A stretch of 47,175 nt of DNA, counting the filler, from Streblomastix strix (taxonomy: Eukaryota), in the NCBI GenBank assembly GCA_008636045.1. It is 2 parts of 2 records of this genome, joined end to end, with 100 filler letters (N's around TTAATTAATTAA, not from the genome) between each part and the next. Parts side by side here need not be neighbours in the genome. Positions count along the whole stretch, not along the records: positions 1 to 23,539 come from SNRW01000273.1; positions 23,640 to 47,175 come from SNRW01000274.1. One strand, 5' to 3'. Shown piece by piece: positions 16,301-47,175 of the stretch (positions are counted from its first letter, which is position 1; the number at the start of each line of letters is the position of its first letter). Under the pieces are notes generated by a model, which worked only from the letters and a program-made list of their open reading frames with translations, was not told where the DNA came from and did no database searches. The translations under genes were made by a program, and so were the position numbers.

Positions 16301-16345
16301 CTGATCATTGCTCTGAATAATGGCGAGGGATTTGGATTAATGTGA
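10306..16345 (+). CDS. UBE3A: UBE3A/E6AP-like HECT E3 ubiquitin ligase with N-terminal AZUL zinc domain
   Basis: N-terminal [21 protein letters not shown] (AZUL pattern QLxxGCxxxxCxNxxC). HECT motifs [91 protein letters not shown]...EGFGLM, then TGA 16343-16345 at the expected HECT C-terminus. About 11 introns. Confidence 0.93.
12378..12591 (+). repeat. Intronic minisatellite of alternating 20/22-bp subunits (~42-bp higher-order unit) in the HECT gene
   Basis: Repeated TATTCAT(C/T)CATAT core, e.g. ...AATTATATTCATCCATATTATATTAATTATTCATTCATATCA... occurs twice at ~12491-12574, with degenerate copies upstream. Confidence 0.8.
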
Positions 16346-16806
16346 TATATATATGTATTAAATAATGTGAATGGATTATGCTAAATAAATAAATATATGG
16401 TTAGGGAAATTCAATTTGAGTTATTAATTGATGATTTGATATTATTAGTTATAGTAAGATAATTTAGTAATTCTGATTTTTAATAATTTTTCTTACATTT
16501 TAATTTTGGTCTTACTTTCTCGCCAATCATTCCGATTTATGCTTTTTGAGCGAATAGTATTATTTATTGTTTTTGTATATTTATAATGCAGTAAATCAAA
16601 GTTCTATTAATAATAAACAACAAATAGAAATAGAAATAGGAAATGGAGTGAAGTGAAATACACTATTGTAAGTAAATGTTGATATATTTATAAATTTATA
16701 TAACACAATTACTAATAATTGCAATATTCATTCATTTAATTATTCATAAATCTAAATTAAAATTATATTCACTATACAATAATAATCCATTCATTTACAA
16801 TATTAT

Positions 16807-20989: not shown

Positions 20990-23539
20990 TCATTTGTTTT
21001 TATTCTTTTCTTTTTATTTTTTCTTCTTATCTTCTTCTTCTTCTTTATCTACTTCTTCTTATTCTTCTTCTTTCATTCTTATTTCTTTTTCATTTTTCTT
21101 ATGTTCTTCTTCTAGTTTAAATCAAAACCTATCATGATCTTCATCTTGTAGTTTCTTTATTCTATCTCTTTAAATATCTCTAGGCTCATTTTAATCTCTT
21201 TATTCTCTATCTTTATATGCATCTCTATTTCGATCTCGATCTCGATTGTCTTTTATTCTTTCCTTTGATCTATTCAAAGTATCATCATTATTATCATCAG
21301 CATTATCTTTATCTTATTATTTATCTTATTATTTATCTTATTATTTTTCTTTCTCCCTGATTTCTCTCAATTCTTTATCTCTCGCATCTCTTTCGCGATT
21401 TTCTCGATCTTTCTTTCTCTTCTCATCAGCTTCTCTTCTTCTTCTTTCTTCCTCATCTCTTCTTTTTTTCTCATCTTCAAGATTCTTTCTTCTTTCTTCT
21501 TGTTCTTATTTGATCAATTCTACTTCTTTTCTTCGACGTCTGCCATTTTCTTCATCTTATAATGTTCTTGAATCATCCAAATAATCTCGTTTAAGATTTC
21601 TATCAGAATATTTAGGTTTCTTTTCTTCTTATGCTGCTTGTTCTTCTGCTTCTAATTACATAGCAACTGCAAGTGCCGCAGCTGAAGCAGGTGAAAGTCC
21701 CATCGCTTATGCAGGAACAGCTGATACAGCTGGATGATCATTGATATTTCGGTCAGTATTATCTTTATCTTTGTCTTTATTATTTATAATTAATTAATTA
21801 ATTTCAATATTATCGCTGTTCTATCTATACTGAGGTAATGGAATTGGTATAATAGGAGGAGGAGGTGATTGTTGTCTTTTTGATTATAATTGTTCATTGT
21901 AAGATTTATTTTATTCAATTTATTTATTTGGCTTTTGAGATTAACTTTATTTATTTAATTAATCTTTTTAAATCATTCTTTTCTAATCTTAATCTTATTA
22001 TTATTCTTTCTCATATTCTTTCTTTTATTCTTTCTTTTATTCTTTCTTTTTTTCGCATTCTCTCAATTATAATTATTATTATTATTATTTATTCCATAAA
22101 TTTTAATCTTTTTCTTATTATTTTTCTAATTTTTTTTCTTATTTTTCAACAATATCAATTATTATTGGAAGCAGTTTTTTGGACTTGGATTTTATTTTTG
22201 AAATTTCATCTTCATTCCAGTTAGGCCATTATTTATTGCCCAATTCATTAATATATTTATCATTTGTTAATTATTCAACTTTCTCTCTAATAATAAATGC
22301 TACTATTATTTAATTAATATTTGATCCATATTTAAGAATAGATATTGAGAAATTAAGACATTCAAGAGTATATTATTCATCTTTGAAAAGTTTTATTTCA
22401 AATCCTTCATCAAGTATTGCATCATGGTTATCTATATATATTGATTATATATTGGAAAAAAGAATAAAATTAAATATAAAATTAATATTTAAATTAATAT
22501 AATTATATTCATTAATATATAAATGCATACCAGGGCATTCAGCTAGAAGTGAAAGTTCATCAATATAATGTAATTTGAGTTCTTTAATAACAATATTTCT
22601 AATTTCTGGTGGAAGAGGAAGTGCTTTGAATAGATAAGCAAATATTAATGCAATGCTAGAATGAATATCTTCATCTTTTTCATCTTTGAATATTTGAATT
22701 AATTTTGGAATTGTTCCATCTGACTACAATTATTAATATAATGGATGGTTTTACCCTTCTTTTAATCCATTAAGTTATAATTTGATAAAATTTAGAATTA
22801 TTTCAATTGCATTTTCTTTGACATCATAATCTTCAGAATCTAAAATTCTAGTCATTGATTGAATTATTCCTTTTTCAAATAAATTCTATTATTATAATTT
22901 TGTATGGAAAATGTCAAATAATTTAGATAATAGAGTAAGATATTAAGATTCAAATTGTAATATTGGAATAGAATTAACAAGTTTAATATATTGATCAATA
23001 AAGTCAGTTTTTATAATTATTAATTTATTTGCTTCTGGATTATTTGTGATTAATAATAATATTATTTCTTTTATAATAATCATTTTTCCATATCTTTCAT
23101 CTTCTTATACTGTTTTTGCAATTATTTCATTTGCCCCCTTCAGTAATCCTGCTTTAATCAATTCAATTAACCCTTCTTAACTTCTTCTTTCAACAACTCT
23201 TCTTATTTTTATTAATTCTTTCATTCCTTTTGGATCTGAATATGAACTTATAAGTTATTATTAATAATCATTATAGCATTTATCAATATTAAGTTTCAAT
23301 ATCATTTCTTTTGAAAATTAGTTTATGATTAATTGTTGTGTTTAACTAAATAATAAAATAAATTATTTAATTAATTAAAATTATTAAAACCAAAATATAT
23401 ATTTTTATGCATACATTCACATTCAGCAAGATAAGATAATGCAAGAAGTGATTCATGAACATAAATTAAATATTTATCTACAACAACTAATTTGAGATTA
23501 CTAATAATAGAAGATCCAATTTCATTTGGAAGTAGAGTT
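20990..23539 (-). CDS. ARM/HEAT-like repeat protein with charged coiled-coil C-terminus, 5'-partial, one internal TGA
   Basis: Two related modules each ending ...LAEC(E/P) followed by an intron. Helical repeats such as LFEKGIIQSMTRILDSEDYDVKENAIEIILNFI and LQSDGTIPKLIQIF...YLFKALPLPPEIRNIVIKELK. Frame continuous through internal TGA 21124-21122 to TGA 20992-20990. Confidence 0.8.
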
Positions 23540-23639
23540 NNNNNNNNNNNNNNNNNNNNNNNNNNNNNNNNNNNNNNNNNNNNTTAATTAATTAANNNNN
23601 NNNNNNNNNNNNNNNNNNNNNNNNNNNNNNNNNNNNNNN
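23540..23639. other. Artificial contig-joining linker (N44-TTAATTAATTAA-N44)
   Basis: Exactly 100 nt with symmetric N runs and a central six-frame-stop spacer TTAATTAATTAA (23584-23595). Genes on both sides are truncated at it. Confidence 0.95.
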
Positions 23640-23641
23640 CA

Positions 23642-26600
23642 AAATTGAATAAAGAGAAATAAAAAGAATAATTAAATAAAGAGAAAACCAAAGAAATATA
23701 ATAAAATTCAGAAAGAAATAAATCTCCATTTGATGAACCCATAAATAATACCAATGAAAATATTCTCATTTCTCCAACATTACCTTTAATTTAATCTCCT
23801 CATCAAGTTATTCCATCGTTATAATATCCTTCATAACAATAATTTTCTAACTCTAATTAATAATTATAATAGTAAGAATTAATTTAGAGGAATTTTGTTG
23901 ATACTGACAAACAATAAATATAACAAAGCAATTTGAAATTGTAATGGGACAATATTAGTGGTACTAGTTTGCTTTAATATGAATAAAAAGGAGATAAATA
24001 AACAGTTAATGATAATAATTAATAATCAGAATCAGAATCAGTGCCACAAGCAATATTTTAAAAACTTCTTAGTAACATGAAAGAAAAAAATCCACTTTTT
24101 TTGTTGTATGCTGAAAGATAAATGGCATTTTTAGGAAGAGTCTGCACTGTGCATGAGAATTTAGAGAATATGGAGAGAGAGGACAGAAAAACATACTTTA
24201 TTAGATTTGCTCGCGATATATACAATGTTTATGAACCGTTTCCTTCCCCGATATCACCCGAATTTTTCACTTAAAATATTAAACCCAATAATATTGTAGT
24301 TTATAAATCTAATGTTAAACCTGTGTTACTCCCATTTACAGTTGTGCTCTCAAAAGAAGTTTTAAAAAGAGGACTTGAAATATAAGAGAAAGGAGAAAGA
24401 AATTAAAATGGTTTGTTTGCTTAAATTAATTCAATAATAATCTCTTTAATTATTATGAACATGAAAAATTATTTTATTTATTTTAATTTTCTTTACTCTA
24501 ACTATTATATAAATTATATATCATAAATTGATTTGAATAAAGTGAGATATAAAGATAATATATCATTAGATGGGAATAGATAAGAAGAAATTATGAAATG
24601 AATGGATTTAATAGTCGAAAAGGATAATTAAAGTGAAAGACCATAATTTGAAGAATTAAAAGATAATTAATCATAAATTTCTATAGGCATAACAAATTCA
24701 TATTAAGAAATACAATAACAATAACAATAGTAAGTTAATTTAAATTAAAGTGAAATCGATGAATAATTTCAATATGAATATACCATGGCCGATAGTATTG
24801 ATATTCAATCTTAACATAAATAGACAAATAATAAAATGGAATAATCCTAATAATTGAATAAATTCAGCAATTAAGAGGGAAAAGAAAAAATGAATGAAAA
24901 AATGATAAAATATAATTAAGAAACCGAAAATAAAACTGTAGAGACTTAGAAAGATAATAATTAAGAGATGAATACAACATCAAATATAAGAATAACACCT
25001 AAAATATTTCTTCAGTGGGCCTTAGTACCTAAAAAGAAGCTGTAAGAATAGAGCAGCGAATCATATTCACATTTATTACAGAATAAGTTCAGTCTCTTTG
25101 GGAATGAGATATAAAACAAATTACAAAATGATAAATAATTTGCCTAATTTTATGATAAAAAGATGGGATTATAGAAACAGAAAGAAAAAGAAAGAAAGAA
25201 AGATTTGATTAGAGAAAAAGAATAGGAGAAGAAAGATAAACAGAAAGATAAGTAGAGAGATAAGTAAATAAAGAAAGAATAAGATGATTATAAATCTAAA
25301 TTAGATAAGGGAAACAATAAGTAGATTTAATTCACTGAATAGAAATAAGAAGAAATATATTATGGAGGGGCTAAATAAATAAAAGATAATAAATAAATAG
25401 AAAAATAAGATGATTTTGATCAGAATTCACTGATTAGCAAAGATTAGAATAGAAGATCATCTCATAGCCACAATAGTCACCATAGAAATAAAGAAAAGAA
25501 AGATAAGCACCATCATAAGCATAAACATTCACATTCTCATTCACATTCACATTCACATTCACACTCAAATAGAAGAAAGGATCAAAGTGAAGATAAAGAA
25601 TCAGATGTTAAATAGGAGAATAAATTTATTAATAAAATGAGTAGAAAAGGAAAACAAGGTTAAGGATTGACTGATGAAGAAGAAGATGAATATTAGGATG
25701 AAACACAAAAGAAGGAGAAAAAATAAAAGAATGAATAAGATGAAGAATTAAATAGAAAGAACAGTAGAAGAAAATCAAAAGAAGATTCATCTTCTGATGT
25801 TGATGAGGATGAGAATACCAGCGAAAATGAATAATTTGAATAATAGAACATAAATGATACATCATTGATTCATTCTCATTCATTTACTATGAAATAATAA
25901 ACTGAAAAACAAATCAGAAAAGAAGAAAAAGATAATGAAAAGCATAAAATCAGTTCTCCTGATGAATAAACACATTAATATAACTAATAATACAATAACC
26001 AAACTAATCCTTCACCTCCTTCTAATGTATCTGCATCAATTACTATACATCAGCCTTCTAATATTACAACACAAAATCATTCAACCAAAACAAATACACA
26101 ATAATAGTCCCAACTTCATCTGAATTAATCCACTCATTTGGAAACAGGACATCTTCAAATATTGACAAATTCTGAAGCTGTTTAAAATGATAAAAACAAG
26201 AAAAATGTTTAATAATAATAAAATGATTAATCTAATTAACAATAGTCTTCAATCATCAACAATTTTTAATCATTTTAATCCGTTTCACAGTCATTAATAT
26301 AATAATAAAATTTGAATTATACTTTTAATTAATAATTATTATAACAATCTTTCATTTAATAATCTCAAAACAATTAGTAATAATAATAAATTTTTTTGCA
26401 AGCACAATAACATTCATTTATTTTTAAGAATAATGATGATTGCAGATTAGATATGCTTGCAATGCAGATCATTACAATTATGGACAGTATTCTAAAGTAT
26501 TATACATTTTCTTTTATACATATTTTATTATTATCATTTTGTATAAATTAAAATATACTTAATGATATTATTACATTATTATGATTTTCTATATTTTTTA

Positions 26601-27789
26601 ATTAATAAATTTGTTATAAATTTAATAGGGAAGAAAACCTTGATCTTCGTATTGTTACATTTAAAGTGTAGCCCATCAGTACAAAACCACCAAGAGGTGT
26701 AAATTAAAATTTATTTATTTTTATTATATTGAAAATTGATATTTTTAGATGAAGTTTTTTTATAATAATTTTTAAAATATTTTTCAATAATAAATAATTT
26801 TTAGGATTAATTGAATTTGTTCCTTCAATGACTATTGATCAAATTAAATTAATAAGTCGTTATTAAAAAAAATTAGAAAAGTTTGATAAATACTGATATA
26901 TGAAAAGTTAAAAATATTATTAATTTCTTTTTTATTTATAATATCAATTTTTCTCTAAATTCAAATATTTTTATATTCAGCTACTACATAGAAAAAGCTC
27001 CTGATCCTTCCACCCGATACAAGTTCAGTCCAGCAGTGATGGAGAATATAGTGAGAAGTATAGCTGGATATTGTGTTATTACATACATTATTGGAGTAGG
27101 AGACAGACATTAGGATAATTTACTCATGACTGAGGATGGTATGTGATTGTGTTAGAGGGAATTATATTGATTCATAAAACTATTTTACTGAATTAATTCT
27201 ATTTTTAATTGTTATTGTTTATTTCATACAGGGAGATTATTTCACGTTGATTTTGCATATTTATTAGGAAAAAATAATAAAATAATGCCATCACCAATGA
27301 AATTGAGTAGTGAAATGGTAGATGTATGATGGATTAATAATGAACAATATTATTTTAATATTTATCTATATTTAATTTAAATAATTATAATTGATTTTTT
27401 TTATATTTATATTATTTTTCAGTTAATGTAAGGGTCAAGTTCTTAATAATACACCTAATTCAAATGTTATTGCATTCAGGTGAACTTTCACTTATTTCTT
27501 TTTTAATATTATGTTTAATTTATTTGCTATAATTTTACAGGCCTTTAGTATTTTGAGGAGAAAAGCCTCTTAATTAGTGCTTACATTATTGAGAATGTTG
27601 AGAAATACTACCATTCCTGATTTAACACAACGCGATGGAATAAAATAAGTATAAATGAAATTTTCACTTGATATTTCTGAGTCAGAAGCAACCAAATTAC
27701 TTATTGATAAAATTAATGAAAGCGAAAAAGCGATTGTCTCTGGAATAGTGGACTCAATTCACAGGTTTAGTCAAAGTGTAAAAAGTTGA
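23642..27789 (+). CDS. VPS34: Class III phosphatidylinositol 3-kinase (Vps34-like), 5'-partial, large insertion in the kinase N-lobe, one internal TGA
   Basis: [11 protein letters not shown]...[14 protein letters not shown] (~24234-24340), [118 protein letters not shown] 27787-27789. Confidence 0.92.
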
Positions 27790-28107
27790 TCTTTAAATAA
27801 ATATTTTTTGTACAATAAATACAAACAATCTATCATCCAATTAATATTAGATAGTAAGTTTAAAGCCAGGAAAAAAAAATTAATAAATTGAGGCTTTTTC
27901 TTGCTACATAGATTTATAATCTGTTGAAAAAATATATATTCAATTTTTTTAGGTTATTACTACTAAATTATATCATTTTCTATCACATTTCTAAATAAAT
28001 TATGCTAATTCTAATATTTTAGTCATTTTAGTCGTTTACTCTCTCTTTCTCTCTTAATAAGTCTCTCCCTATCTTTATTTCTTAATTTATTTTAGTAGTA
28101 TACTGCA

Positions 28108-31100
28108 ATGAGCATTAAAATTCCTGATGTTATCTGTTCTGAATTACCATCGCAAAATGTTTCAATAGAATGTATGTATATTTTGCCATATTTTATTTGA
28201 AATAATTATATAATTTTTTTTTAATAATTTTTTTAAAATATTCTTTAGAAAATGAAAATATTGCAGAGTGTATATTATAATTTCCCGAGCCAATTCTTGT
28301 GAATGGGGTTTATTTTTACTCACAAACAAAATTATTTGAAGACAATTTTAAGAAATGTGAGATTTTTGCAGAGAAAGCTAATGGGGAAATTTCAGTTATT
28401 TAATAGATAAACATTAGTTGTGCTCCATGCAATAGACCCAACTTCATTAATTCATGATCACAAGCTAATACTCCGAGATACGAATCAGATGGAATTCTTT
28501 TTTGCAATTGGCTTGCCATATAATTTTCTTCGATTTGTAAGTCTCTTGCAATTATATTCACTCTTCCAAAAGATATATCAATTGGATCAGTAGCGTAATT
28601 ATAAAGAGAAAACCCAGATGTTTCAATACTCTTTGACAGTTTCAGAGTTATTGGGTTTTCAATTAATAGAATAGTTCCTTCTCAATATTATATTCAACTT
28701 ATATCTCAAGCGTCATTGTTTAATATACAAACACATGGAAATGATAAAATAGATTCACTTTTTTTATCTACACTCTCACTTTAAGCTGGTCGCTTATATT
28801 CACAAACCATTGATACCATTAGAATAATTTAACAATTATTTATTGACTAACTCTAAAACAGAGATAAATAAATAATATCTGCATCTTATAATAATAATAC
28901 TAATAATATTAACTTAATGTCAGTTTATAAGTTTAGAATAGCAGCACTGTTAGAATTATGTGTTACTTCAATAATTTTACAATCTGGAAAGTATAGTTCA
29001 CATGAATGGCAGGTTTCAATGCTTCGCGCAGGTTGGCTTAATTTACATGCTGAATTCTATGAATGGTAAATTGCATAACAAAAAAGAGATCCAGAATCAG
29101 TTCATTAAACAAAAGAATAATTTTTTGTTCCAATTGATCCTCCATCTATTGTTGTATTTGGTTCTCCATATCTTAATCTTTTCTATTATCATCTCCCAAA
29201 ACCTACATTACCAGGGATCTATTTCAGAAATTATGATTAAATTGATTTTAATGAAGAAAATCACTCAAATTAAAATAAATCAATAAATGATGATATTGAT
29301 TCATAATCTTTTATTCCTCTCTTTTCTCCATACATTATTTCACTCACACGTCTAATCAATCATGGATTAATATGTTCATCTGGTCTTTTGAGGTATCATT
29401 CAGTGAGAACATCATCAGCACTTCTGGAGATTATGTGTGATGCTGCTTAATCTGACTCTGGAATTGAATGCTTTGGTGGAATTGAAGGAAATAGTCCATC
29501 TTTATTTGATCTTGCAATATATTTGGCATTTGGTGTGTTTAAGTCTTGCATATCTGTTGGGCGACTCTGTTTATAGTATTAAGTATAAAGTAACGTTTTT
29601 TCAAGAATTGGATTTGGATCTTTGGTTTAAAGAGTTTAATATTTGAGAGAATCATCAACAAGAATTGATGTAGAGAAAGTTTCATTACCTTTCTTACTAC
29701 TTCAAGCACTCCCTGCAACTGTTCTCAATGTTGAAGATATTAACTCATAATCAAGAAGAATGATAAACATGCAATTATCTCCAACAGAAGTTCACACTTA
29801 ATCAAAATAACTTCCATCATCATCACCATTCTTCTTCTTCTATCCTTCACTTATATCTGGATACTACAGATTATATATTCATAGGAACTATGTTGCTCTT
29901 TATACATTAATCAGTCCACGACCTCCTCCAAATGCTGCTTCTGAATTCTTTGAAGCTCAATGAAGGACTCAATAAATTATTTAACAGAAGAAATATAATG
30001 TATTAACTTCATACTATTATTCCATGTTCCCTCTTACTACACTCATTAGAATATATGTTGAAAGAGTAATACCATTTATTTAAGAGGAATTAGATAGACA
30101 TAACCTTTACTTGTCATTTGGGAGTGTATATTATAAATGTTATTATCAGCACCATAAAATGTGTATGTAAGGGAAATAAATAGTACTTCTCAGAGAATCG
30201 TAGAAATAAATATAGAAAGTTGAAGATAAGTAGAATGATAAAGGAAGTAGCATATCATTGAAGAGTGATGAAGGAAGATTAATCCAAATCCACAATCCTT
30301 GATACATTACTAAATTAGAACCACTTGTATCACCACGATTGGATTAATCAGATAATTGTGATGAATTATCTCAAACATCTCATTCACCTCATCGTAACTA
30401 TCAATAATAACAATATTCATATCAACTCACATATTCATCTTCAATTAGTTCCAGATCTTCATCTGATTCTGGAAGTTCAATAAACAATTCAAACATGTCA
30501 ACGCCTTCAGCTTCAGCACTTGATATTGGTACTCCACACTTTGGGTTTCAAGAACCTGGACTTCAGAATATGGCCATAACAGCTGCTGCAAATATTCTGA
30601 ATCTTGGATCCTTATTACCAACTATTATTATTCAGCGAATCAATTAAATAACTTTATTACAATTTCATAGAAAGAGCAACAATTATCTATCTCTATAATT
30701 CGCTTTACATCTATTTGCTTTGATAAACCCAACTGCAAAAAGGTCCGAATAAATTCTTTAAAAATTATTAAAATAATAAGAATTTGGCAATGAAAAAATA
30801 GATAAATAAACTAAATCAGATATTAATGATTAAAAAAATGTAAATTCAGACATTTCATCCATCTCAGAATCAGATAAAGTTTCTTCCTTAATAAATGTAT
30901 AAGAGCATTTGGAAGAGAACAACAATCAATGTCCATGTAAAATTATGTTGTAAAGTGCTTGGGAGGAAGCACCTTTATGATTTGTGGAGTTGAAATAGCC
31001 AATATTCTTTGCTATTCCTTCATACAATAGAAGGGACCAATCAACAATTGGAAATAGATTTGAAACACTGAACCCATTTAAGAGAGCAAAACAATAACGA

Positions 31101-34100
31101 TCATAATCAAAACCAAATAGAATTGAATTTCGAATAGCAACATACTCTCTTATACCTGAGACAAGCATACCTCGATACATTCACAATCTATTTTCAAAGA
31201 TTGAGGAGAATCGAATGATTGTAAGGGATAAAAGATCAATTAGATTATTGTTGAAGAATTTGAAATCACTTCGAAATAAGTTCAGAGAAACGACCACAAG
31301 TATTGATGCCAATGATGAGATGATATTCCATGATTTTGAACCCAACACATAAACATCAAATTAATTGGAGAATGGATGGATACAAGATCCTGAAGAAGAA
31401 GATGAATTCAAAGATGAAGACCTTGGAGATGAAGATGATGATGATGTCATTATAGAAAGAGAGATAGCCCGTGGTCTCCTCGTATAGGAGATAAAGAAGG
31501 ATGAACATTAGGCAGCAAAAGAAGCTGAGAGACTCAGACAGTAACTTTGGAGGGAGAGAGAAAAAGAAAGAGAAAGAGAAGGTGGGTTTGGAGGATGGGG
31601 TGACATTCAGATTAAGCAGAAGAGGGGGAATAAGAAGAAGAATTAATAAAGTAGGAGACATAATCTGAAATCTAATTTCTATAGATTAGATAAATTGACT
31701 AAGATTAAGATTCCGAGTTCATATGATAGAAACCATCAATACGAGTAGAAATCAATTGGGTAAGAAGTGAGTGTGAGATTAAAACAGAAACTTCAGCAAT
31801 AGAACTTTTCAGCATCATTTAAGGATGATCATAGAAACTAAATTGTATTGAAGAATAGAAATGATAATTTGGGTAATTAATTCTTAATTCAATCAAATAA
31901 TTATAACCGACAAGATCAAACGCAGTATTTTAACTCTGATAATAACAGCATTGGTCTTTATTCTAGTGACAACAATTCTATTATCAGAAGTGAAGTTTTT
32001 GAAAGAGAAAACGATTAAGTAAACCCATTGAAAGTTATTCCTCTCATATCACTTGAACTCACCAAATCACAAGTTCAGGAAATCCTTCCAACATTGAAAG
32101 AGAGAAGAATTAATGACTCTCCATTCATTTCGTCTATTCCAACATTTATTCTTTCAAATTCTATTCTCATGTTCACCAACATGGTTCCACTCTTTGCATT
32201 GAAAGAACCTGAATCTGCTTCTTAAATTACTCCCACTTCAAGAAGATTGAATTTGAGAGACTAGAATGAAAAGGATAATAATAATAATGGAAAGGAAACA
32301 ATCAATCAATCACAATCAACAACTGGAAGTCCCTGGATGCCACCAAATGAAAAAACAAAACTTTTAGAATTGGCTTTGTATAGAATAGCGGATTCTTTAA
32401 TGATACGTTTGGAGTTGTATTTGAATGAAGAAGGAAGTCATAAGTCCAGATAACACCCATTTAATTATAGACAAAATGATCCATAGATAAGAGAATAATA
32501 ATCAAGATCATGGGTTTATAAAAAAGCCTATTAATTGTTTAGAAGATGGAAAAATCAGCTTGAAAATGCAGAATTAGAAAATTCAACACCAAATTCAAAC
32601 AAATCTCCCAATACTTCTTAAAGTTAAAATGCACAGTATACTTCTGATTCATTAAGATTGCGATAAAATAAATCAAATCTTTATTCCCACCCACTCACAT
32701 AAGGTACAGCTGCATAAGAATAACATCCTGATTAATAGGAAAAAGATTCAGATTAGATATTGAATACACAGGATAATCAATAAAGAAAATCAGAAAGCAA
32801 CATAACTTATCACAAATAAGCATCTTAATTACGCTAAAATAGATCCACACAATCCGGATCTGAGAAGCTCATACAACAGAGTATTAATTAATCTCTTCAA
32901 CCACTTCATGATACTTTGAACATTCAGACATAATCATTTGATAAAAATTAATTTACTCCAATTATATCTCCAAAAAGAAATTTGAATGACAATTCTTAGT
33001 TTAAATAACAGCTTTCACAATAAATACACAAATAAGACGAATATTTGAAAGGGAAATATGTAAGAGATAATTATATGAAAAGCGAAGATATGCAATCAGT
33101 AACCAATATGAGCAATGTTGTTGGTAAAACAAGCACAGTTAATGAATTTGGAGGAATAAGCATCAATGCATCTTCACCACAATATAATTCATTCATGGAT
33201 ATGATTATGATTAGAATTGTGCATACTTTGATTCCTAACTTATGGCATGGTGAATAAATTAAGAAGCAAATAAGGATAGAAAAGATAAAATAAAAAGAAA
33301 CTGGATAAAATATGGATAATTAAGATGTAAAGTATCAAAAAGGAATAAATAGTAAAGTATTAGATAATAATGTTCATTTAACACCAAGAGCAATTAATTC
33401 AATATTAATGCTAATAGATATTCTTTCTTTGATAATTCGAGAAGAAGAGATTATAAATAGTCAAATGGACCAATTCTAATAACAGAAGATTAATAAAAGG
33501 AAAAGAATTGGCTCATTTGATACACTTACAAGCAAGAATCATATTCTCACTATTTCTCAGAATAAAATAGACTCATTTTCTTCATCAACGTCTGTTAATG
33601 TTCACACATCACCCCATAGAACATCAACAAGTCCAAGAGATCTTATATCCTATAATTCTCCATCTCCAAGTCATTCTCCAAGAGTATCATCTTTTTTATC
33701 AGATTCACTTTCAGATTCATCACATTCAAATACAAGTTATGCTGATTTTAGTCGTTAAACCTACTCTTAATTAAGTTATGCCATACCTGCATAGCTTCTT
33801 AAGCACATGCATCTCCTACTTACTCTATCTCCTCTTCTACATCCATCTCTCTCTCTTCGTATTCTACGTCTTGTATGTCTCCCATCAACTGCACTATTAT
33901 ATAGATAAATATTGGGGGTATTTGAGAATGAAGATTAAAAAGATAATAAAGAAACTATTAAGGAAGATAAGGAGATGAAGCACGATTAGATTAATCTCAC
34001 AAATTAAGAGTCTGATTACATGTTCCCAACTCTTATTATATAATTAGCTGCAAACACATTAACGAAGGTTGTAGATAAATAGAGGAATGAAAGAGCTTCT

Positions 34101-37100
34101 TTAGTTTATAAGGAGATAAAAGTGGATTAAAAAACTAAAAAAGATGAAAATGAAGAAGAAAATGAAGATTGGATGATAAAAAAGAATGATGACCAATAAG
34201 AAACTAACATCCCATTATTTATTGATCTTATAGATGAAGCTCTCAATAACAATGAAAATGTCTGGGAAATGGAAGTTAGTAAAATGTCGGAGGATAAAAT
34301 TTAGTCATTTCATAAAAAAACGGAACATATAAGGTAAGAGATATTTCAAAAGCATGTAACTAAAAAGAAAACAAAATATTAGAAATAGTAATTAAAACGA
34401 TCCAAATCATTTGACGGTAAATTAAGATAAGAATTAAATGAAGATAACGATTTTAAAGAGAATTATGAAAAATGGGGAGATAATAACACGCACTTGAATA
34501 TGAACTAATGTCTATTAAGATGCAGATTGTATTATGAATAGTGCCTTAAACCAAAAAAATTACTTTCTCAATTTTTTAGAGTTATTTGGCCTTTGATTGA
34601 ATCAGTGCAGAGGATCGCCGAACTACTTCCACATTCCTTTGCAAATTAATACTCAGGAAAGAGTATCAATGCAAAGGGAAATGTGCCTAATTAGAATATG
34701 ATACCTCCTTCTTTGAAGAATTGTATTGATACGAAATTAGAACAATAATATAGTTTCCAGATTCCAATTATTTCTGCCATTAGATATGTTTGTGCTGTTC
34801 TATGTTTCATTGGAGATTTGATACCACCTTACATTCTAACTCTGCTAATGAACTCTCTTATGTACAGACAGATGCAGATGACAGCTACATTTGTAGCAGC
34901 AAAGACAGCAAGCGAGGCTGAAACTGAAGATAAACCACTTCCAACACTTCAGTCACTTGATCCAATTAATTAGAAGTAGGATGAAGGTTAAGGGACAGAT
35001 ACTGATAAATCTGGAGATAAAAGAACAGACATTGCAAATCCAGTTAAATAACAGAAATAAGGATTTTATTTATATTCATAAGAAGCATCAGATCAATTGT
35101 AAACAGCTGTCAATACTTTGGTTGTTATTCTTTCTAAAATTATTGCAAAAGATAAATCCAGAAGATGGTCTTAAAGACAAATAGAAAGAGATATTACAAC
35201 TTAAGATGATCTTCCTGTGAGATTCAGATACATTCTTTCTGTTTTCCTTCCATATCCAAAACCATCTGATATCCACCTTTCATAAATATAATCATCCACA
35301 TCTAAATCTTCATTATTATCTGCTTCTACATAGACTACAACAGTTTCATCTTCATCAATATATGAATACCAACCAAATACTTAAATTAATGAATCTATAC
35401 TTACACTCCTTAAACTATCATATCCTCTGAAAGAATAAAACTACTCTTTTAATTCTTTTACTTTCTTCCTCTACACTGAAGCAAATATTTTCTGCATAAA
35501 ATTTGTGCTCAGAAATATTCTTGCAAAATAAAGAAAAATAATTTGGCTTGAATTCCCTTTGAATCAACCAGACCAACAGACAACTACCAGAAAACAAGAA
35601 TAAAATTCATTATAGAGAAATATTGCTTTAATTTTTTTAAATTTAGTCAAAAATTGTAGAATTGAAAGAGATAATCCAAATAATAAATTGAATAATTATC
35701 CAAATCAAGAGAAAAGCGACAGTTTGAGTGACAATTCCTCCAATTCTTCAGATGTGGATATAATCACTGCAAAATAATAAGATAACGGAGAATTGACTTA
35801 AGATATCAATTAAAATGATTTGAATATTTTAGAAGTTCTGTCAATTGAGAATTACACAAATCATTTATCAAATCTTTCTTTATTTATTGACAGATTGCTT
35901 GATTTTTTTGTCAAGAAAAACTCTTCTCTTTTTTCAACATAAATTTCTTCTTTTCGTCATTCAGTGGAATTTTCTATAATAATTGAGTTCCCTTCCTTAG
36001 CTCTTCGAGAATAGATTATTAATTTGCTTATTGATTCAACTCGAATTGTGATTATTGAGCTTCTAATGAATCCAAGTTAATGCATTGCAGTTCATAGATA
36101 TGTTTCTACCTTATTTGTTATATGTAGATGCTTGAATACATTATGTTATTTCAGCTCAGTTCCTGTTCCAACATCCAATGTAACAAACCTTTCTCAAGAA
36201 AAAAAGATAGATCATGATATATATTCTGGATATATATGTGAACATTATGAGTGGATTCCAACACCATTAACTGATTCTATTGTATCTTTCTCTACAAACA
36301 TTCTGACTTTGCTTCTTAATTTTGCCTTAAATGATATATTTCCTTTGCGAAAGGATGAAAAAGAACCATTTCTTAATTTATTTGCATCATCCATAATTCA
36401 CATATGCACTTTTCATTGTATTCAATCACAGAGTAACAGTGTTTAGTCAAGACTTGTGTAATTCAGGATAAATATTCTTATCAACATTCTTATTTCAGCA
36501 GGAAACAGAGTTGCTAATAAATTTAGGAATAAAAAATAAAAAAAGAAAGAGAAATATCATTGGGTTATTTATGATAAAATTATCTTTTATGTTTTATAAA
36601 ATTTCCAGAACAATAAACTTTCATTATAATATAGAATTATCGAATCTTTGGAAATTCTTCAGAAAATTGATTAAGAAAATATGATTATTTGTTTGAAGGA
36701 AGAAGAGAAGAGCTCATTGGAAGGAATATAATAAAATATTAAAGAAGATTCTGAAGGGTATCGATGTTAATATATGTTAAATGAAATATTAAATTAGGTT
36801 AATGATCTTCTTCCTCATTTAAATAATGCATATTTAGTTAATTAAGCTGCTACAATGAAGAAAATGATTGAATTTCTACTTTATAAAGGAAGATAATCAA
36901 AGGTTAAGAAACATTATTACAATCATATAAATAATCAGGAATTTGTTTATATAAATTCAAATAATACAATTTATAATTTATATTCTTATAAACAAATTCC
37001 CTTTTTCTCTTCATTATCAGCTAATATTCGTGCATCTCCATATGCATTCTCACTTCTTTCTACTCCATTAACACCGCAAACATCATTAATAGTCGATGCT

Positions 37101-40100
37101 GAATTGCTTAAAGTTAATTAATAGGGTAATTCAACACCAGCAATTTCATAGAAACAAAACTAATCATTAATAGGAGGAGAATAAAACTTGAATTAGAAAG
37201 TTTACTAACATTCGCAATAAGATTAAAATTAATCGAACCTCAAAACAACATCCATTAGTTCAGATGATTCACCTAATATTAATTCATAAGACCATTTAGA
37301 GGATGACGAAGATATTTACTAAGATGAAAATGATGATAAATCTCAAATTAACTTCAATCTTCGAGATGAAATATAATAAGAAACTGATCAACACATCTAT
37401 ATTGGAGTATTTAGACCATTACATTCTCTTAAAAATAACTTTTATTAGAAAAAAGAAGATGAATAATGTCCAAATAACAGTATTAAAGTCCAAACCAAAG
37501 ATGAAATGCTTATTCAAATTCTAAGATAGAATGAAGGGAAGATTGAAAAGTTACAAATTAATTATTTCAGCAGACACCCACTCATCTTAGTTGATAAGAA
37601 AGCACAACCGTCAGCAAATTATAGCATTGCAAAAGACTAATCATTTATAACATAGCAATGGAAATACCTTCCACTTGTCTCATTCTTGTCACTTCAACCA
37701 AGTCTTAAAGATCCTTTTGATCGACTTTTTAATTCACACATAACTTACAATATGACATAAAGACTTAAATCAGGAATTGCTAAATATTTATCCAGAGATT
37801 AATCAATGATTTCTCCTCTTCTTTCACAAACCTTCACTTCATTCTTCTTTGATCCTGAATTAACAAGTGGGAATATAACAAAGAATGAATATATCACAAA
37901 AGATGGATTTGAAAGGAAGAAGATTCAAATGTAAACAAGCAGATACAGAAGTGGGTTTAATTTCTCTCTTATAGCAAATTCATTTCGAGCTTAATTTATT
38001 CCTCCTTCTCCAATGGTTACCAGATTTAGACCTTCTGGAACATAATAATTCACAAGTTCAGAACAATTAGATGCAATTGATAGGGGATTCCAACCAAAGA
38101 GTTAAGTAGAAAGAATAGCAGATTCAAATGAAAAATTAAATGAATAAGGCAAAATTGCATTAAGCAAATATACGAGGAATTCATCTCCTCTTTCATCATC
38201 ATATGTACCACCAATACAAACATATTAATTAGTTGAGCCAACAAATAAAGACAAAAACTAATTATAAATTAATGAGTCTAATATTAATGATAAAAGAAGG
38301 CAAGGAAGATCTCAATCTATTGGATCTGGATAAGATGACAGTGAAGGAGCAGCAATCAGGGCATTAGCTCTATTTAATATGCAACAGGAGAAGGAATAGA
38401 AACAAATGAAGATGGAGGATAAAGAAGAGATTGAAAATGATGCATAATAATATGATGATGAAAAAGCAATGAGAATAATTGGAGAAAAGTTGAAAAGAGG
38501 GAAATAAAATATGTTTAAAGATGAAATAGCAAAAACACTTCTGCATTAAAATGAAATTTCAGCCGTTTTGGATACTGATCCTTTTATTAATTCACCACTT
38601 GCACCTCCTAATGTGAATTCTAACTTCAAATAGATCAATGATAAGAATAGAACATATCTGCTTCCTTCAGGTTAAAATGATTTTAATGAAAAGAAGAATA
38701 TTTTTATGAATATTTTGTTGGGTGATGATGAAGATGATCATAACAAGGATAATAACACAAATAATCCTCAATCTTTCTAACCTCAAAATAAATAAAGCAC
38801 AATTAGAATGAATAAAGATAGTATAGATGAAGTAATTTAGTCAGCAATTCTTCTTTTAGGAATAATTGGATTTAATTTGTCTATAAAATCATCTCAATAA
38901 TAAAATTAGAGTAAATAAACATAAGATTCATTTGAGGATCTAGATGATGAATAAGTTTTTAGACCTCCTTATTCAACATAAAGAATTATTCCACTTCCAT
39001 TTACTCCATTTTATGTTGATATGAATTAATAGATCACAAATGAAGTAGCTTTCTAAGGATCTTTATTTTCACAACATGTCATTGATACTATTATATATTA
39101 ATGGATACAAATTGAATAACAGAAGCACTATAAAGACAGATTTGATGCGCCAGAAGGAATATATCTTCCAATTACTGACAGAAAAAGAGAATTTGATTAA
39201 CTTTGGACCGTATCTAGCATTGCTGAAGAAGAATAAACACAGGAAGAAAATATTTTGAAAGAAGAGTAGTAGAAATAGAATTATCATAGAAATGAGAATT
39301 ATAATGTAATAGATAAATAAATTACGCCCAAATAATAATAAAAATAATAATAAACAGAACCAAAAGATATATCTGAAAATTCATTCAATATTCATGACCT
39401 ATCTCCCCATGATTCGTTATCAAAAAGAGCAGAAAGTGTTTAATCATCAATTTAGAGCTCATTAAATCTTTTTCATTATAGCAAATTTCCTTTGGGCTTC
39501 TTTTTATAAGGATCATCAGTAGGACTAAGATAGCTCTATGATTGGGGCACTTCTTTCTCATCTCCAAGATGCTTTGATTTGGCTCTTCTGGATCAGATGG
39601 CTTCTGTTGTATGCAGTGAACCTCACATTGAATTTCGCTTTACTGAAGGAAATACTGAGGAATTGGAGATGGAATTTGGAGATGTGGACAAATTGAGTGC
39701 AAAAGAAGCAGAGAATAGGATAGCTGAAATCTAAAAGCAAATTGATCTTCTAAGAATAAAAGTGAAAATATACAAATCAAGAAAAGACTAAAGAAGTTAA
39801 TAAAAATTGGACATCTAAATCCCATTTTCTGATTACGATAATTAAAATCCATTTAGTCCATAAACAAGATCACCTGTATCTGAGAAATACGGATCATTAA
39901 TGCAATATAATTCTAGTAATTATAATAGACGAACAATGGATATTCCTTTGTAATATTAAAATTAGCATGAGTAGTACATAGAAGAAGAGGAATATGGATT
40001 ATTTGCTGAACCTTAAGATCCATTTTCTTAAGGAGATAATTCTGCATCTCCAAAGCCAGATAACATTTTATATGAAAGATAGAGAATGGCTTCTGTTGAA

Positions 40101-41459
40101 GTTGTCAGATCAACCAGAACTAATCTGAATGATTAGTTTTACAAAGATTATAGCAATAAAAATGAGATCAATTAATCATCTCTAAATTTCATTGATGAAT
40201 CTAATGAAAATTAAAATGAATAATAATAAAGCAACTCATAATACTAACATCAGAATAACTATAATTTACTCTAATTGTAATCTGAATCATATTCAACTCT
40301 TTCTTCATTACCACAAACTTCATTCACACATATCTCATAATCTTCTTCTTAATTACCATATCAAAGATAAACATCTGGATTAGTTAGAGAAGCATCAAAG
40401 AAATCATCAATGTTATATAACAAATCTTTTGGGGAAGCAATTCAAGAAGATTACTTGCCCGAAGATAAAGATGAAATTATTAAGTCTTAATTAGAACCAA
40501 TTTAAGATTTAAATAATGAATTTGACCCATTTACCTCGCCGAAATTGAATAATTAAGATTAAAACAAGAATTCTGATTAAAAGTTGAATCAATATTTTTT
40601 CCCTTCATATTCAAATGATAATAAATAACTTGAATCTGATGAAACATCCAGATAAGAATAATAAACGCCTACAAGAATTTAACCATAAGATCCAGATTCT
40701 AATACTTAATCTCCTATTAAAATATCACCTAATAAATCTGAATAGGAAAATGGTTTCCTTTAATCAAATGCAAATATAGTATTATAAAAATATGATAGAG
40801 AAACATTGCCAAAATTTCGAAATATTCCACCATTGGTTCTTAATCAAGCAAACACAGCTAATATTCACTTCAGAAATAACTCATATGATGTGAGGAGGAC
40901 AATTAAAGATTTAAATTAACTTGAATTAGATAAAACTTAGCCAAAATTAGATGAATAAAAGAAAGTCCAGAAAACTCCACGTTAACATATTCATCACCAC
41001 AATAAGAGAAAGAGCATGATTCTACCCAGAAGCTCATCAAGGGACCAAGATAACTAATAAGGTGAATCACAATATGCAGATAGATATGCAGACATTGACA
41101 AAGTGATTGATGAATATATTGAGATGAAGAACACAATTGGAGAATAATCAAATATTTATGTAAGAGGTGCATAGTCAAGTAGATAAAGAAAGAGAAGGAA
41201 TTAAGGAAGGGATGATAATGGGATGAATAAGAGAAGCTAACAAAGATCTCATAGCAAATCTCCATTGTAAATTCACAGCCAATTACACTCAAAACAAAAC
41301 GAAGATAAGAAAAAATAATATAAAAAAGATTCTAGTAGTGAAGGTGATGAATTGGATATCAGCGAAGAAAGGAGACTCGAGAAGCGTGCGTTGAAAATTA
41401 GTCGAATGATGAAGAGACTGGAGCAGAAAGATGAAGATTTTATAGGGAAGAAGAAATGA
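28108..41459 (+). CDS. Giant hypothetical protein (~4,424 aa), two exons, four internal TGA codons
   Basis: ATG 28108, intron 28172-28248 (splits a TAA=Gln codon), then one 13.2-kb exon read codon by codon in a single frame with no frameshift. Track ORFs 32028, 33045 and 36132 are in this frame. Internal TGA at 28455, 29961, 30300, 30978. Terminal TGA 41457-41459 is followed by non-coding-like AT-rich DNA. Confidence 0.8.
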
Positions 41460-42129
41460 GTAAAATCAATATTTGATTTTAAAGTGCTATATCATGTTGA
41501 ATAAACTCTTATTCACTTCATTTTACATATTATTGAATAGTGTAAAATAATATATTGTCATTTTTCATGTGATTTTATCCGAAATTTTTGTGTGCAGAGC
41601 AAAAGAAATATAAAAATCACCAAGTGTTTTTACAACAATTATACATCCATTTATTTTTACTCTCTTGATAATTAATTGACATTTATAAATTTATTCAATA
41701 TTATTTATATATGTTATATAGGACGAACAATCGAGAACGGTGAAATCAAAAAACCCGTTTTATTGATTTTCCGCATATACACAAGTGCAAACTTGTTATT
41801 TGTGTAATTAATCAGCATGTTTAATTAAACTGTTAATATATTTATATAATATAATGTATAATAACCTCATCTGCACATAATTTTATTCCTGTCCAAAAAA
41901 AGCCGATTTTTTGAACTATTTTTAACATATTTATTAATATTTGATTTATTACTTTAATATTATCTTTTTGTAGCTTAAAGTTTGCTTATCTCTTACTGCC
42001 TAACAAGAGAATTATAATAGATTGATATGATTAAAAATAGTTTCATCAATAAAATGCAAATACCTAGTCTTATTATTTATTTTAAGCTTTTTTAAAATAT
42101 TTATCTGTTTTTTAATCTGTATTCTCTAG

Positions 42130-42676
42130 ATGAGTAATTGGGTTTGTTTCAATATTTCGAGTATTTAGCTTATTTGTTTTCTAGAATTCTTATTATAAAC
42201 CTAGTGGCGCTCGTCGAGACCGGATTGACGAAGAACTAAAGAATTTAAATCAATCACACATTGAAAGCGAAGAAATGCGTCAGGTGCAGATTATCAGGTA
42301 GTAAGATGTATAACTTGATGTTCTTCATGAAGCAACAGGTTAATTAAAATAAATGTCAGTCGTTATGGGGGATGAGATTGATAAATAGGATAAGTATATT
42401 CTGCTATTTTATTATTCTTACTTTCATTTTGGATTAATATAGGGCAATAGATGGTCTAGGGGAAGATATAGACAGAAACAAAAATAAGATCGGAATTCTC
42501 AATAAAACTATAGACAAAGTCCGAAATACAAAACGTATATCTTTATTATTATTTTTCATCATTTATTATGTTGTCCTAATTTAATTTGCTTAGACAAAGG
42601 GCTCTGGTGTACAATCTTTATATTAGCTATGATATTGGTAGCTCTCATCATCATCTTATTCAAAACAATATTTTGA
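42130..42676 (+). CDS. Qc-SNARE (syntaxin-6/8/Tlg1-like motif) with C-terminal transmembrane anchor
   Basis: Four coding exons give ...QVQIIRQQDVQLDVLHEATGQLKQMSVVMGDEIDKQDKAIDGLGEDIDRNKNKIGILNKTIDKV...GLWCTIFILAMILVALIIILFKTIF, TGA 42674-42676. The zero-layer Gln is encoded by TAG (42386-42388). Confidence 0.9.
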
Positions 42677-43228
42677 GTTTTGTATAATAAAACAAGTTGA
42701 GTATCATTATATTAAGCATAAAAATTAATTTCTTACCAGACAATTTAGTTTTTAATAATAATTTACCAATTTGTTCCTATTTAAATAAGAAATAAAAAAA
42801 ATTGATCTTAAATTCACAGTGCAGCTTACAAAAAATTATCATTAAAATTTAATTTCTAGCTAAAACTAGATTATTAAACAGCTTATATATATATCTATCA
42901 AATTATAAACTGTTATTAATATAAATTTTCACTATTACAAACATATATTAACTCGATTTAGTACATTTTAATTTATTTCAATTAAATTTCAAGATTTAAC
43001 CTCAACAAATAATATTATTTAAATAATTTTGATTTAAATATTAGATAATTTATTATTTGTTTTATATTTTTCATCATCCTTCTATTTGAACATATATAAT
43101 TTAAAAACTTAATCAAATTGAAATGATTCATTAAGCAAGAAATTTAAAAAAACATCTTATAATTTTCACCCCATCTAAAAATTATTATATTTTTCTATTA
43201 GCAATTCAGGTAAATAAGTTCAATTTAA

Positions 43229-46200
43229 ATGACAATGAAAGATTAGAAAAGAACAAGTACTGGCCAGATGAAAGACTAAGAAATAATTTATAGAGAAAAA
43301 TTAAATGATCTCAAACATTAAATTGGAGTGTTATAATTGATGCCGTTTGCCATAATAAATTTTTTTGTCAAATTCTAATGTATACTTTATAATTTTGATT
43401 GTTTAATTTTTGTTCAAGAACATCACAAACAATAGACGCAAAAGAATTTGAATCTCAACTTTAGACAAAACAAGTTCGTAGAGCACAAGAGTAGCAGAGG
43501 ATCTTAGAGCGTTTCAATGAGATGAATAGAGCAGCTGTAATGGGCGATTTGGAAAAGGCTGAAAAAATGCTTAGTTAAAAGATAGAACGTATGATAGTAT
43601 ACATTTATATTCATTATATTCATTTCTATTGTCAATAAGGTTCTGAGTAGGAAATTGATGATTTTATTGAGTAGCGTCTAAGCAACTATTAGTAATATAA
43701 AAACAAGGTTATTAACACAAACAGTCGTATAAATAAGTTCATGATTGAGGTTTTATTTTTTTATTCTTTCACAAATTATTCACCTGAAATATTAATTCTA
43801 TTCAGGCTGAAACAAATTTATCAAAGGGAATTCATGAGATTATTTAGTAATAAGATTCATCAAGCCCTTAGTAACCAAATACATTCACTCTTCGTAAATA
43901 AATTAAACCAAATAATCTAACGCAGAATTAAAGACAATTGTCGTTAATGTTAAACCAAACAAATGCAAATCAGGAAAAATAAGAATCAGAATTTGTAGAA
44001 ATGACTCGAAGTAGTATGCAACAATTAATGAATAGTCTTGAGTAGTCTCATTAGAACACAACAATGGGAGATCTTGATAAGTGGCTTGGAGGAAGATAAA
44101 TTAATTACGAGATGGATAAAGAGAAGCTTCAGAATATGGAGATCAATGCTTCTGTTGGTGAGGATGTTGCTGTCACTCAAACTGATGTTGTTGATACACT
44201 ATTAGAGAAGATGGTTAATGAGAAGGAAGCTACTTGGGATCGTTGGAATTAACTTACAAACGCTGCTGAGATAATTTAAGTTGAAAATATTACAAATAAA
44301 TAGAAAAACGAAAAATTACTATAAAAACTGTAAAAAGAAAAAGAAAGAGCTGATCAAATTAACAGTAAAATAAATGCAATCAAAAAAGGAGACCAATAAA
44401 ATGTAACATCTGAATCTGGAGGTCTTTTAATTTAGTTATTAGGTGAAGAAAGTGATACAGATTCTGATGAAGTTGAGATTAATAATGCAGATTGAGCACC
44501 TGATAGCAATAATGAAGAGTATTTATAAAAGAAAGGAGCATCAATTTAATAGAATGCATAATAGAATATAACACCACATAAAGATAATTCTGTTGTTAAT
44601 GAAGCATAAAGATTAAGAGACATTATGTAGAATTTAGAATAATCAATGATAGGAATGAGACAAAGAATTTAATAGAAAGAAGAAGAAAATAAAGTTAATT
44701 TGGCTAAGTTATAATCAAGAATGAATGATCTTGGAAGTAAATTAGGGGAGAAATCAGCATAAACAGAATAAATTGCATAATTATTAGAGAAAACATAAAC
44801 TGAGAAATCATCTGTAGAGAAAAATATGAGATAATAATATGCATCTCGTGAGAAGGCAATAGAAGGTGTTAAGATGCATTTAATTAGGTTATAAGCATAT
44901 ATTGAAGATCCTCAGAATAATGCTATAGATGATAATGCTATTGAATAAATGAGATAAGTTTTGGCTGCTGATACTCCAGCTGCATTAGCTGCACTTGCTG
45001 TTGAAGACAACTAAGCATTATTCCCATATTCAATTGGAGATCTCAATATTCTCAATTAAAAGAAAGAAAAGAAATAATAGAATGGTGATTAGGATAATGA
45101 AGATAGAAATTATACTGAAGAAGATGAAGATGATGAAGATGAAGATATTTAATGGGATTATAATAAATAAAAACAAAGCAATTCAAATATTCAATCTGTA
45201 TCAGATATGGATAGATAGTAAAGTGATTATGTATAATAAAAGAAGAAATACAAATAAAATGAGAAATATGATGAATAAGATTCAGATTAATAATATTAAT
45301 TTCATCGTCGAAATCGTCATAATACATAACAAGACCCCTTTCAGATTGAATTACCATCAGATAATTCAAACAGTTTAATAAAGAATTAAAATAAATTCAA
45401 ATCACAAAGTCAGTTAAATTAAGGCAGTTAACATCTTCATTAATCTTCTTCTTCTTCTTTATTATAAAATTAATAATTAATTTTTTCACCAACATTCTCT
45501 CTTGATGAATTAAATTCATTTAATTAATAAAACAATTAGCTTTAAAAGAGTAAAAGCTCTTCTAATGTTAATGATATAGCATCTTGAGTTTCAGAATCTG
45601 TAATAGGAAATTCTGAGTCTTTTTCATAATTAATTAGTAGTTCAATAATTGATAAAGAAGATGATACAATTGAATAAGAAGCTGCAACTGCTTCTGATGG
45701 TCAGTAATTAAAGCAAGGAAAGAAAAAAGGAAGAAAAGGATTAAATACAAAACTATCTTCATATCCATCATAAGTTAGTAGATAGGATTCATAATTGATA
45801 ATATAAGTTCCAAAGAAGAGAAAGAAATAAAATAAACAATCTCCAAATGATGTTTAAAATGCAATACTGGACTAAACACCAAGACAATAAAAAGATAAAG
45901 AAAAAGATAAAAATATTATAAAGAATAAAGACAAATAGAAATCAGCATAATTAACTTATATAGTTCCTCCTACTCCTCAAAAATAAACCAGTAAAAAAGA
46001 TTTCAAAGATAATTAGAAGCAAAAAGCAACATCGCCAATTCTTGGATAATAGAGAGATAAATAAAAAGATAAATAAAAAGTGAGCAAATTAAAATAAAAA
46101 AATAAAAAAGATGGAGAATCAAATGAAGATAAATTATCCAACTAAATCATTTCAATATCTCCAAGTACTGCATAATTAGATAATTAGGATTAGGAATAGT

Positions 46201-47175
46201 AAAATACTGAATAAGAATAAGAATAAGAGTAAGATGATAATGAACAATAAGAATAATAACAATAATAAGAAGAATAGAAAGATGAGAGTAAAATGACCAT
46301 AACTGAAATATGGTTGAAGAGAAAGAAAGATTTGGAAGATTGGAATCAAGAAATGGAGAAGAAGAAGAAGGAAAGAGAAATTGAAGTAAAAGAAACTCCT
46401 GTTCTGACTGGGAAGAAGAAATTGAAGCATCTTTAGTCTAATCTGACAATAAGTACATCTAAAGGTAATTTATTAAAGAGGTAACAGTCATCATTGTTTA
46501 AATCTAAATTCAAAGATGGATAAACTCCTAATTCTCTTTCTTCATTTAGATAAGGTCAATAATTCTCTACAAGTAAAAAATAAGAAAGCAAAGATTAGTT
46601 TGATGATAATAATTCAAATAGTAATTAATATTCACCTCAAAAACTGGAATAATAAAAATAGTAATAATATGATAGAGATTTTGATGAAGAAGAAGATTAT
46701 GATAATAAAGGAATCTAATAATGGAAAGGAGAAGAAGTAACTGGATTGGGATCAGATTTGCTGGATGGAATTCTCTCATAGGGAACAGGAGCTGGAATAT
46801 TTGGAACTAAATTAAGAAACTCTCAATCTGCATAAACATAAGGAATTGGAGATAGAAAATTAATTGGATCTGTTGCATTACCTGGATCAGATGAATATAT
46901 ATAACAATAACTGAAATTGTAATATTTGGATTAAAATTAGTAATCAATATAATTTGGTGGTAGCTAATAGGAGTTACTTGGAAAGAAAATAGATATAAAT
47001 GAAGAGTTGTTAAAATAGAGATTAAATAATGAAAAAAGAGATAGCCTTTCAGAAGAAATAAAAGAAGAAGAGAAAATAAAATAAGCTCCACCAATGTCCA
47101 GATCTGAGCAAAGAGCAGCCGAAAGAAGAGCAAGAATTGCAGAATAAGGAAAGAAAGAAAATGTGAAAGAAAAAG
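43229..47175 (+). CDS. Long coiled-coil/low-complexity hypothetical protein, 3'-partial, two internal TGA codons
   Basis: ATG 43229 (start uncertain), three short GT-AG introns, then one frame from 43806 open to the window end. Heptad-rich segments such as EAQRLRDIMQNLEQSMIGMRQRIQQKEEENKVNLAKLQSRMNDL. Internal TGA at 44493 and 45585. Confidence 0.8.

Follow-up and report, generated by a model that had tools for sequence, protein, structure and literature searches.

In-frame TGA codons in constrained genes of the oxymonad Streblomastix strix point to a probable double meaning of UGA

Genetic codes without a dedicated stop codon are the closest described systems to the one considered here, the use of UGA in the oxymonad Streblomastix strix, a termite-gut protist, of which a stretch of 47,175 nucleotides (nt), hereafter the window, holds eight in-frame TGAs inside four long genes. 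In two preprints, the organisms listed with such codes are limited to some ciliates, Blastocrithidia, and a single Amoebophrya strain (bioRxiv 2023.10.09.561518, bioRxiv 2022.04.12.488043). In table 27, the code of Parduczia sp. and karyorelict ciliates, UAA and UAG are Gln and UGA is terminal and rarely internal, as in S. strix; internal UGA was reported at 0.120% of codons in Parduczia (PMC4967479), against 0.075% in the window. UGA is also both Trp and stop, under the same table, in Amoebophrya sp. ex Karlodinium, but S. strix is a metamonad and not an alveolate. Karyorelict UGAs have been reported at conserved BUSCO positions (bioRxiv 2022.04.12.488043), whereas in S. strix none was placed on a conserved Trp and none was found at kinase Trp columns. 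In Condylostoma magnum (table 28), all three canonical stops are also sense, as in S. strix, no distinguishing sequence context is seen in either, and the reported UGA usage is of the same order (0.042%, PMC4967479). However, all three codons also terminate in C. magnum, whereas the inspected gene ends of S. strix are all TGA, and ribosome profiling together with mass spectrometry has proven readthrough in C. magnum, whereas the S. strix case is read from DNA alone. Blastocrithidia (table 31) is likewise an AT-rich, insect-associated protist with no dedicated stop and with non-random avoidance of its reassigned codons; unlike S. strix, it has UAR (UAA or UAG) as Glu and UAA as terminator, and its UGA is the majority Trp codon, at a reported 0.72-0.85% of codons (PMC12153298), about ten times the S. 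strix rate.

For S. strix itself, a March 2026 oxymonad paper gives TAR as Gln and uses the Hexamita code, citing Keeling and Leander 2003, and its accessible text contains neither 'UGA' nor 'TGA' (PMC13002328); an initial reading of the window without database searches (the sequence-only reading) had described the species in the same way, with UAR as Gln and UGA as stop. No report of sense UGA in an oxymonad was found among titles and abstract openings, a coverage that leaves out most subscription papers, the S. strix genome paper, and supplements. The window matches an S. strix protein letter for letter under table 6, which agrees with the oxymonad host considered in that reading. The published code (table 6) is confirmed here as to TAR as Gln and TGA termination, but it leaves no room for TGA inside genes. 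In S. strix UAA and UAG are Gln and UGA terminates genes, and the internal UGAs (8 of 10,726 codons) are likely sense. We therefore favour, with a probability of about 0.58, a UGA that is a stop near the 3' end of the messenger RNA (mRNA) and an amino acid, probably Trp, further upstream. S. strix would then probably have a new ambiguous code of independent origin, similar to table 27 and lacking a dedicated stop, the residue itself being unproven.

The eight TGAs named by the sequence-only reading are all present, with the coordinates, strands, and peptide contexts it gave. One (21122..21124, minus strand, between DRF and FKL) lies in an armadillo-like gene with a charged low-complexity tail (20990..23305, minus strand, start approximate, terminal TGA 20992), 43 codons before the next TGA. 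The second (24599..24601, plus strand, between EEIMK and MDLI) lies inside an insertion of a Vps34-like class III PI3-kinase gene (23640..27789, plus strand, 5'-cut at the contig start, terminal TGA 27787). Four are found in a giant gene of about 4,400 codons and no assigned family (28108..41459, plus strand), which has a single 5' intron (28172-28248) and one frame throughout, at 28455..28457 (between FINS and SQA), 29961..29963 (FEAQ and RTQ), 30300..30302 (IHNP and YIT), and 30978..30980 (EAPL and FVEL, with a TGG six codons earlier), all on the plus strand. The last two, 44493..44495 (NAD and APD) and 45585..45587 (DIAS and VSES), both on the plus strand, belong to a coiled-coil-like gene with no assigned family (43229..47175, plus strand, start approximate, open at the contig end).

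Coding-like sequence continues in frame after each of these sites, as had been claimed. The 120 nt 3' of each TGA were scored with a coding-versus-noncoding model trained on the 3' part of the giant gene, without any scored internal stretch, on sites fixed beforehand, the ten terminal ones being selected by the analyst. The scores were positive (1.5 to 25.1) at 8/8 internal sites and negative (-4.9 to -14.8) at 10/10 terminal ones, a difference with a Mann-Whitney p of 2e-5. All ten gene ends inspected consist of a TGA followed by non-coding-like DNA, and TGA stands at the expected C-termini of the HECT ligase (EGFGLM), the SNARE (LFKTIF), and the Vps34-like kinase (27787). The sense use of TAA and TAG was also borne out: they supply 231 of the 338 Gln codons in the 3,492-codon open reading frame at the 3' side of the giant gene, and the window matches S. 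strix proteins under table 6. In the same open reading frame Trp is TGG 19 times, and the other five frames carry 49-195 TGAs each. Separate same-frame genes split by the TGAs were rejected, since no AT-rich spacer occurs at the TGAs.

In this small set of sites, over 1.5 kb separates seven of the eight internal TGAs from the end of their gene or contig, and 43 codons separate the remaining one. Internal and terminal TGAs show no obvious difference at the +4 position, where C occurs in 0/8 internal cases; thus, no readthrough motif explains the internal TGAs. The weakest site is 21124, where the low-complexity tail scores 13.7 in frame versus 11.4 in an alternative frame, and a true stop could be there. 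TGA 24599 splits two contiguous Vps34 segments, as it lies between DNA matching Vps34 (2x6f) residues 393-433 (E=0.095, the best of four matches) and residues 438-468 (E=9e-4). The kinase N-lobe insertion around it is about 700 residues long, of low complexity (Gln-, Lys-, and His-Ser-rich; 24360-26400, plus strand), and the loop that carries it counts four residues in chain 2x6f, where it lies between residues 433 and 438.

Other sequencing runs were compared over 27176-42900 (15.7 kb), a region covering the four giant-gene sites only. Run X1 is possibly the source of this DNA, X4 shares the sample of X1, X2 comes from another sample, and X3 from another study. A 9,410-nt contig of X1 shows 11 differences in 7.2 kb, none of them at 28455, 29961, 30300, or 30978; 28455 is covered by X4, and 30300 and 30978 by X2, a run of unrecorded kind, with the TGAs unchanged in every case. 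Among the X3 pieces listed, none crosses a TGA, and the nearest stops at 30974. Assembly error was therefore rejected for these four sites, to which the check on a possible TGG in the reads was limited. Run X2 covers only 30178-31546 (1.4 kb of the 15.7 kb) at a depth of 11-14, whereas X4 coverage is thin and scattered; this patch could be a complementary DNA fragment crossing two TGAs, although the kind of run is not on record.

The reading frame around these four TGAs is constrained. All of them lie within the 5'-most 910 codons of exon 2, followed by 3,492 codons with none; no frameshift occurs over 13 kb, and one frame runs across all four. Frame 0 exceeds both other plus frames in 10/10 windows of 300 nt between 28251 and 31250, and one reverse frame scores above it in two of the ten. 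Under a simple mutation model, in which 1.9% of substitutions create TGA, four TGAs need about 208 substitutions (7.6%) if neutral. Among the differences between runs that were listed, 5/7 before the last TGA are synonymous (expected 22-29%, p 0.007-0.026), as are 19/28 after it; in run X2, 7/7 listed differences are synonymous, four of them between TGAs 30300 and 30978. These observations support purifying selection on the regions that hold internal TGAs, and neither a neutral substitution pattern nor the frameshifts that the sequence-only reading had named as a mark of pseudogenes were seen. Pseudogenes or dead alleles with nonsense mutations would suit a genome in which families are expanded and many gene models are fragmentary, no ortholog confirms function, and TGA 21124 would cost just 43 residues. 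However, the unbroken frame, the TGA-free last 3,492 codons, and the synonymous excess on both sides of the last TGA speak against it, as do the TGAs common to every compared contig listed as covering them, the Vps34-like catalytic exon, which is intact (E=1e-11, DRH motif kept), and the roughly 4 of 11 window genes that would be affected, so that we consider this explanation improbable.

The TGAs might instead be removed before they reach the ribosome, by atypical introns or by adenosine-to-inosine mRNA editing read as UGG. An intron model was trained on 21 putative introns recognised in the sequence (GC content 6-22%, leave-one-out scores 7.6 to 58.8). At seven sites, the best frame-keeping GT-AG candidates over the TGA score -2.8 to -24.4, inside the spread of -68.5 to 7.9 that 40 random exon positions gave; nothing intron-like thus covers these TGAs. 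The idea that TGAs are spliced out keeps a foothold at 24599 alone, where an intron at 24411-24614 (score 4.2) would remove the TGA in frame; it is the poorer alternative to an acceptor at 24569 (score 15.5), which leaves the TGA exonic. In 20/21 training introns, no earlier TAG or CAG occurs in the last 60 nt. Contigs of X2, a run whose kind is not recorded, pass through 30300 and 30978 unaltered and without a joint. No run is confirmed as RNA, a point in favour of splicing or editing, which we regard as rather improbable overall. Taken together, the data support internal UGAs that are real, exonic, in frame, and bordered by coding sequence that is under constraint. The giant gene has one intron only, though the genome is otherwise intron-rich.

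Public annotation under table 6 hides internal TGAs, as the sequence-only reading had expected, and this was shown for one model, KAA6402187.1, which matches the window letter for letter. This model is a chimera: it begins after TGA 24599, fuses the Vps34-like gene to the next gene, jumps TGA 28455 by a gap of about 750 nt, and terminates exactly at TGA 29961.

The residue at internal UGAs was approached indirectly, through the conserved Trp positions of an expanded S. strix kinase family, using 98 S. strix models (125 proteins minus 27 not labelled S. strix), mostly from the best 120 of 715 matches. Of the 155 covered cells in four conserved Trp columns, 136 hold Trp, 14 hold another residue, and 5 are gaps, which is background level for gaps (mean 3-4%). 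A UGA use of 10% at these positions has p=0.004, and one of 5% has p=0.29. Three models stop two residues short of a Trp, probably by intron run-in, though they could be either; counting them gives 8/144. The 14% share of TGA seen in the window therefore does not reach conserved kinase Trp, where a use of 10% or more is excluded but a Condylostoma-like few percent, up to about 4-5%, is compatible. Models ending in NMA, NMV, or KV were rejected as signs of TGA, because they would fit run-ins into introns. Four kinase models (P0070, P0142, P0143, and P0022) end at Ala where paralogs end at Val, a pattern that would suit GC-AG introns overlooked in gene prediction. Flank hydrophobicity at the internal TGAs gave no discrimination between residues.

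Several points weigh against a UGA that is sense upstream and stop downstream. All the evidence comes from a single window, chosen for its TGAs, and the polymorphism set comprises 40 of the 163 differences, of which the 35 in the giant gene were used and the 5 outside dropped. None of the eight TGAs is alignable to any homolog, in line with the earlier remark that none falls on a recognisable conserved Trp. In 18 coding blocks delimited by hand (10,726 codons), 8 internal TGAs stand beside 51 TGGs, so that TGA is 8/59 (14%) of TGA plus TGG and 0.075% of all codons, far below the A-ending share of 67-87% at six other NNA/NNG pairs. Within the giant gene, 4 TGA and 5 TGG occur in the 5' part and 0 and 19 after it (Fisher p=0.006, post hoc). 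No complete kinase model among the 98 ends directly before a conserved Trp, although annotation does end at internal TGAs, as in KAA6402187.1. S. strix is reported to have UPF1 (PMC1501061), so nonsense-mediated decay would have to spare mRNAs with internal UGAs. No sequencing run is on record as RNA, and the runs say nothing on expression.

One rival explanation is leaky UGA termination far from poly(A), with nonsense codons derived from TAA, TCA, GGA, TGG, and AGA tolerated at unconstrained positions and mixed residues inserted; it grades into the favoured one. The lack of a TGA signature at conserved kinase Trp agrees with it, as do a TGA share far under the AT-bias expectation and the placement of the identifiable sites within insertion or low-complexity regions. 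TAA would be the likeliest mutational source of TGA (31% in the simple mutation model, versus 10% for TGG), and the proposal that TGG>TGA changes fit the AT bias is accordingly weak. However, four serial UGAs need high readthrough, as 10% at each would leave, by arithmetic, 1 full-length product in 10,000, and the segments between the four UGAs are constrained. We consider leaky termination unlikely.

A further option is that UGA is selenocysteine or cysteine. Oxymonads are reported with selenocysteine synthesis (PMC10703272), and Euplotes reads UGA as Cys (PMC10089648). However, the TGA contexts are not redox motifs, Pfam scans of the four TGA-bearing genes gave no selenoprotein family, and Rfam gave no selenocysteine insertion sequence (SECIS) or other match in the window at gathering level, with one sub-threshold small nucleolar RNA, although a divergent SECIS may escape the models. 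This option is very improbable.

By analogy with ciliates, the favoured double meaning of UGA could arise as follows. With UAR taken over by Gln tRNAs, eRF1 would be a weak competitor at UGA when not aided by poly(A)-binding protein; internal UGAs would be decoded through tRNA-Trp(CCA), which is near-cognate, and termination at UGA would be tied to the poly(A) tail, as in the poly(A)-proximity model proposed for Condylostoma (PMC4967479). In yeast, UGA readthrough was reported to insert 86% Trp (PMC4967479). A 4-bp stem in tRNA-Trp is found among ciliates that read UGA as Trp, and eRF1 Ser67 changes were reported as neither needed nor sufficient (bioRxiv 2023.10.09.561518); no tRNA gene occurs within the window. 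From the constraint between the four serial UGAs we infer efficient readthrough. The rarity of UGA and its avoidance at the conserved Trp of short kinase genes would fit costly or position-limited decoding. The distances of seven of eight sites from gene ends, together with the kinase result, suggest a possible long-range position effect on UGA meaning. A stronger version, which we hold as doubtful but worth stating, is an ambiguous code at an early stage, in which the meaning of UGA changes by degrees with its distance from the mRNA 3' end, over kilobases versus tens of bases in ciliates, so that UGA would be sense only deep in very long mRNAs and stop in 1-kb kinase genes.

As for the genes themselves, the giant gene showed no Pfam family in Pfam scans and no homolog among proteins of 878-2505 residues; a HMMER search with its first 917 residues against 1.84 billion proteins gave one match, a fragment of the giant gene itself. 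Its single-sequence AlphaFold model was unusable (predicted local distance difference test 42.7). Its N-terminus may resemble a Virilizer-type beta-sandwich. The armadillo-like gene has an ELMO_ARM match of E=0.0016, under the Pfam cut-off. Exact look-ups of guessed gene models found 0/12 window open reading frames. In a search with the kinase, 0 of 250 metagenome stretches were confirmed, and viral contigs yielded five distant loci and bacteria one weak locus, with no oxymonad DNA in any of them; a TGA-flanking pattern matched 61 times, without homology to the window apart from low-complexity sequence.

The window consists of two contigs of 23,539 and 23,536 nt, separated by an artificial N-spacer (23540..23639). 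It begins with an oxysterol-binding-protein-like gene (1-2733, plus strand, PF01237, E=2e-6) with a TGA at its end. A kinase of the expanded S. strix family follows (3306-7457, plus strand), with a degenerate catalytic loop (LRDINAEN and AGFE versus HRDIKxEN and ADFG) and C-terminal zinc-finger-like CPFC motifs; from its sequence it is likely a pseudokinase. The HECT E3 ligase gene (10307-16345, plus strand, PF00632, E=2e-63) is interrupted by long Gln/Ser-rich insertions, and its Trp codons are all TGG in the counted blocks. A C2HC zinc-finger-like gene (16791-18070, minus strand) and the syntaxin-like SNARE (41730-42676, plus strand), both named by eye, also end with TGA.

If the double meaning of UGA is true, the public S. 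strix proteome would be truncated or chimeric at genes with internal TGAs, as seen in one model, which bears on claims of gene absence. S. strix would represent a further independent origin of such a code, in another supergroup and with convergence on table 27. The case would allow a test of whether UAR as Gln makes UGA prone to ambiguity and of whether a short-stem tRNA-Trp is a recurrent mechanism, with comparison offered by standard-code relatives and a second TAR=Gln oxymonad that has been reported (PMC13002328). A UGA graded on the kilobase scale, if true, would give Metamonada its first such code, and this in a genome rich in introns and with UPF1 retained.

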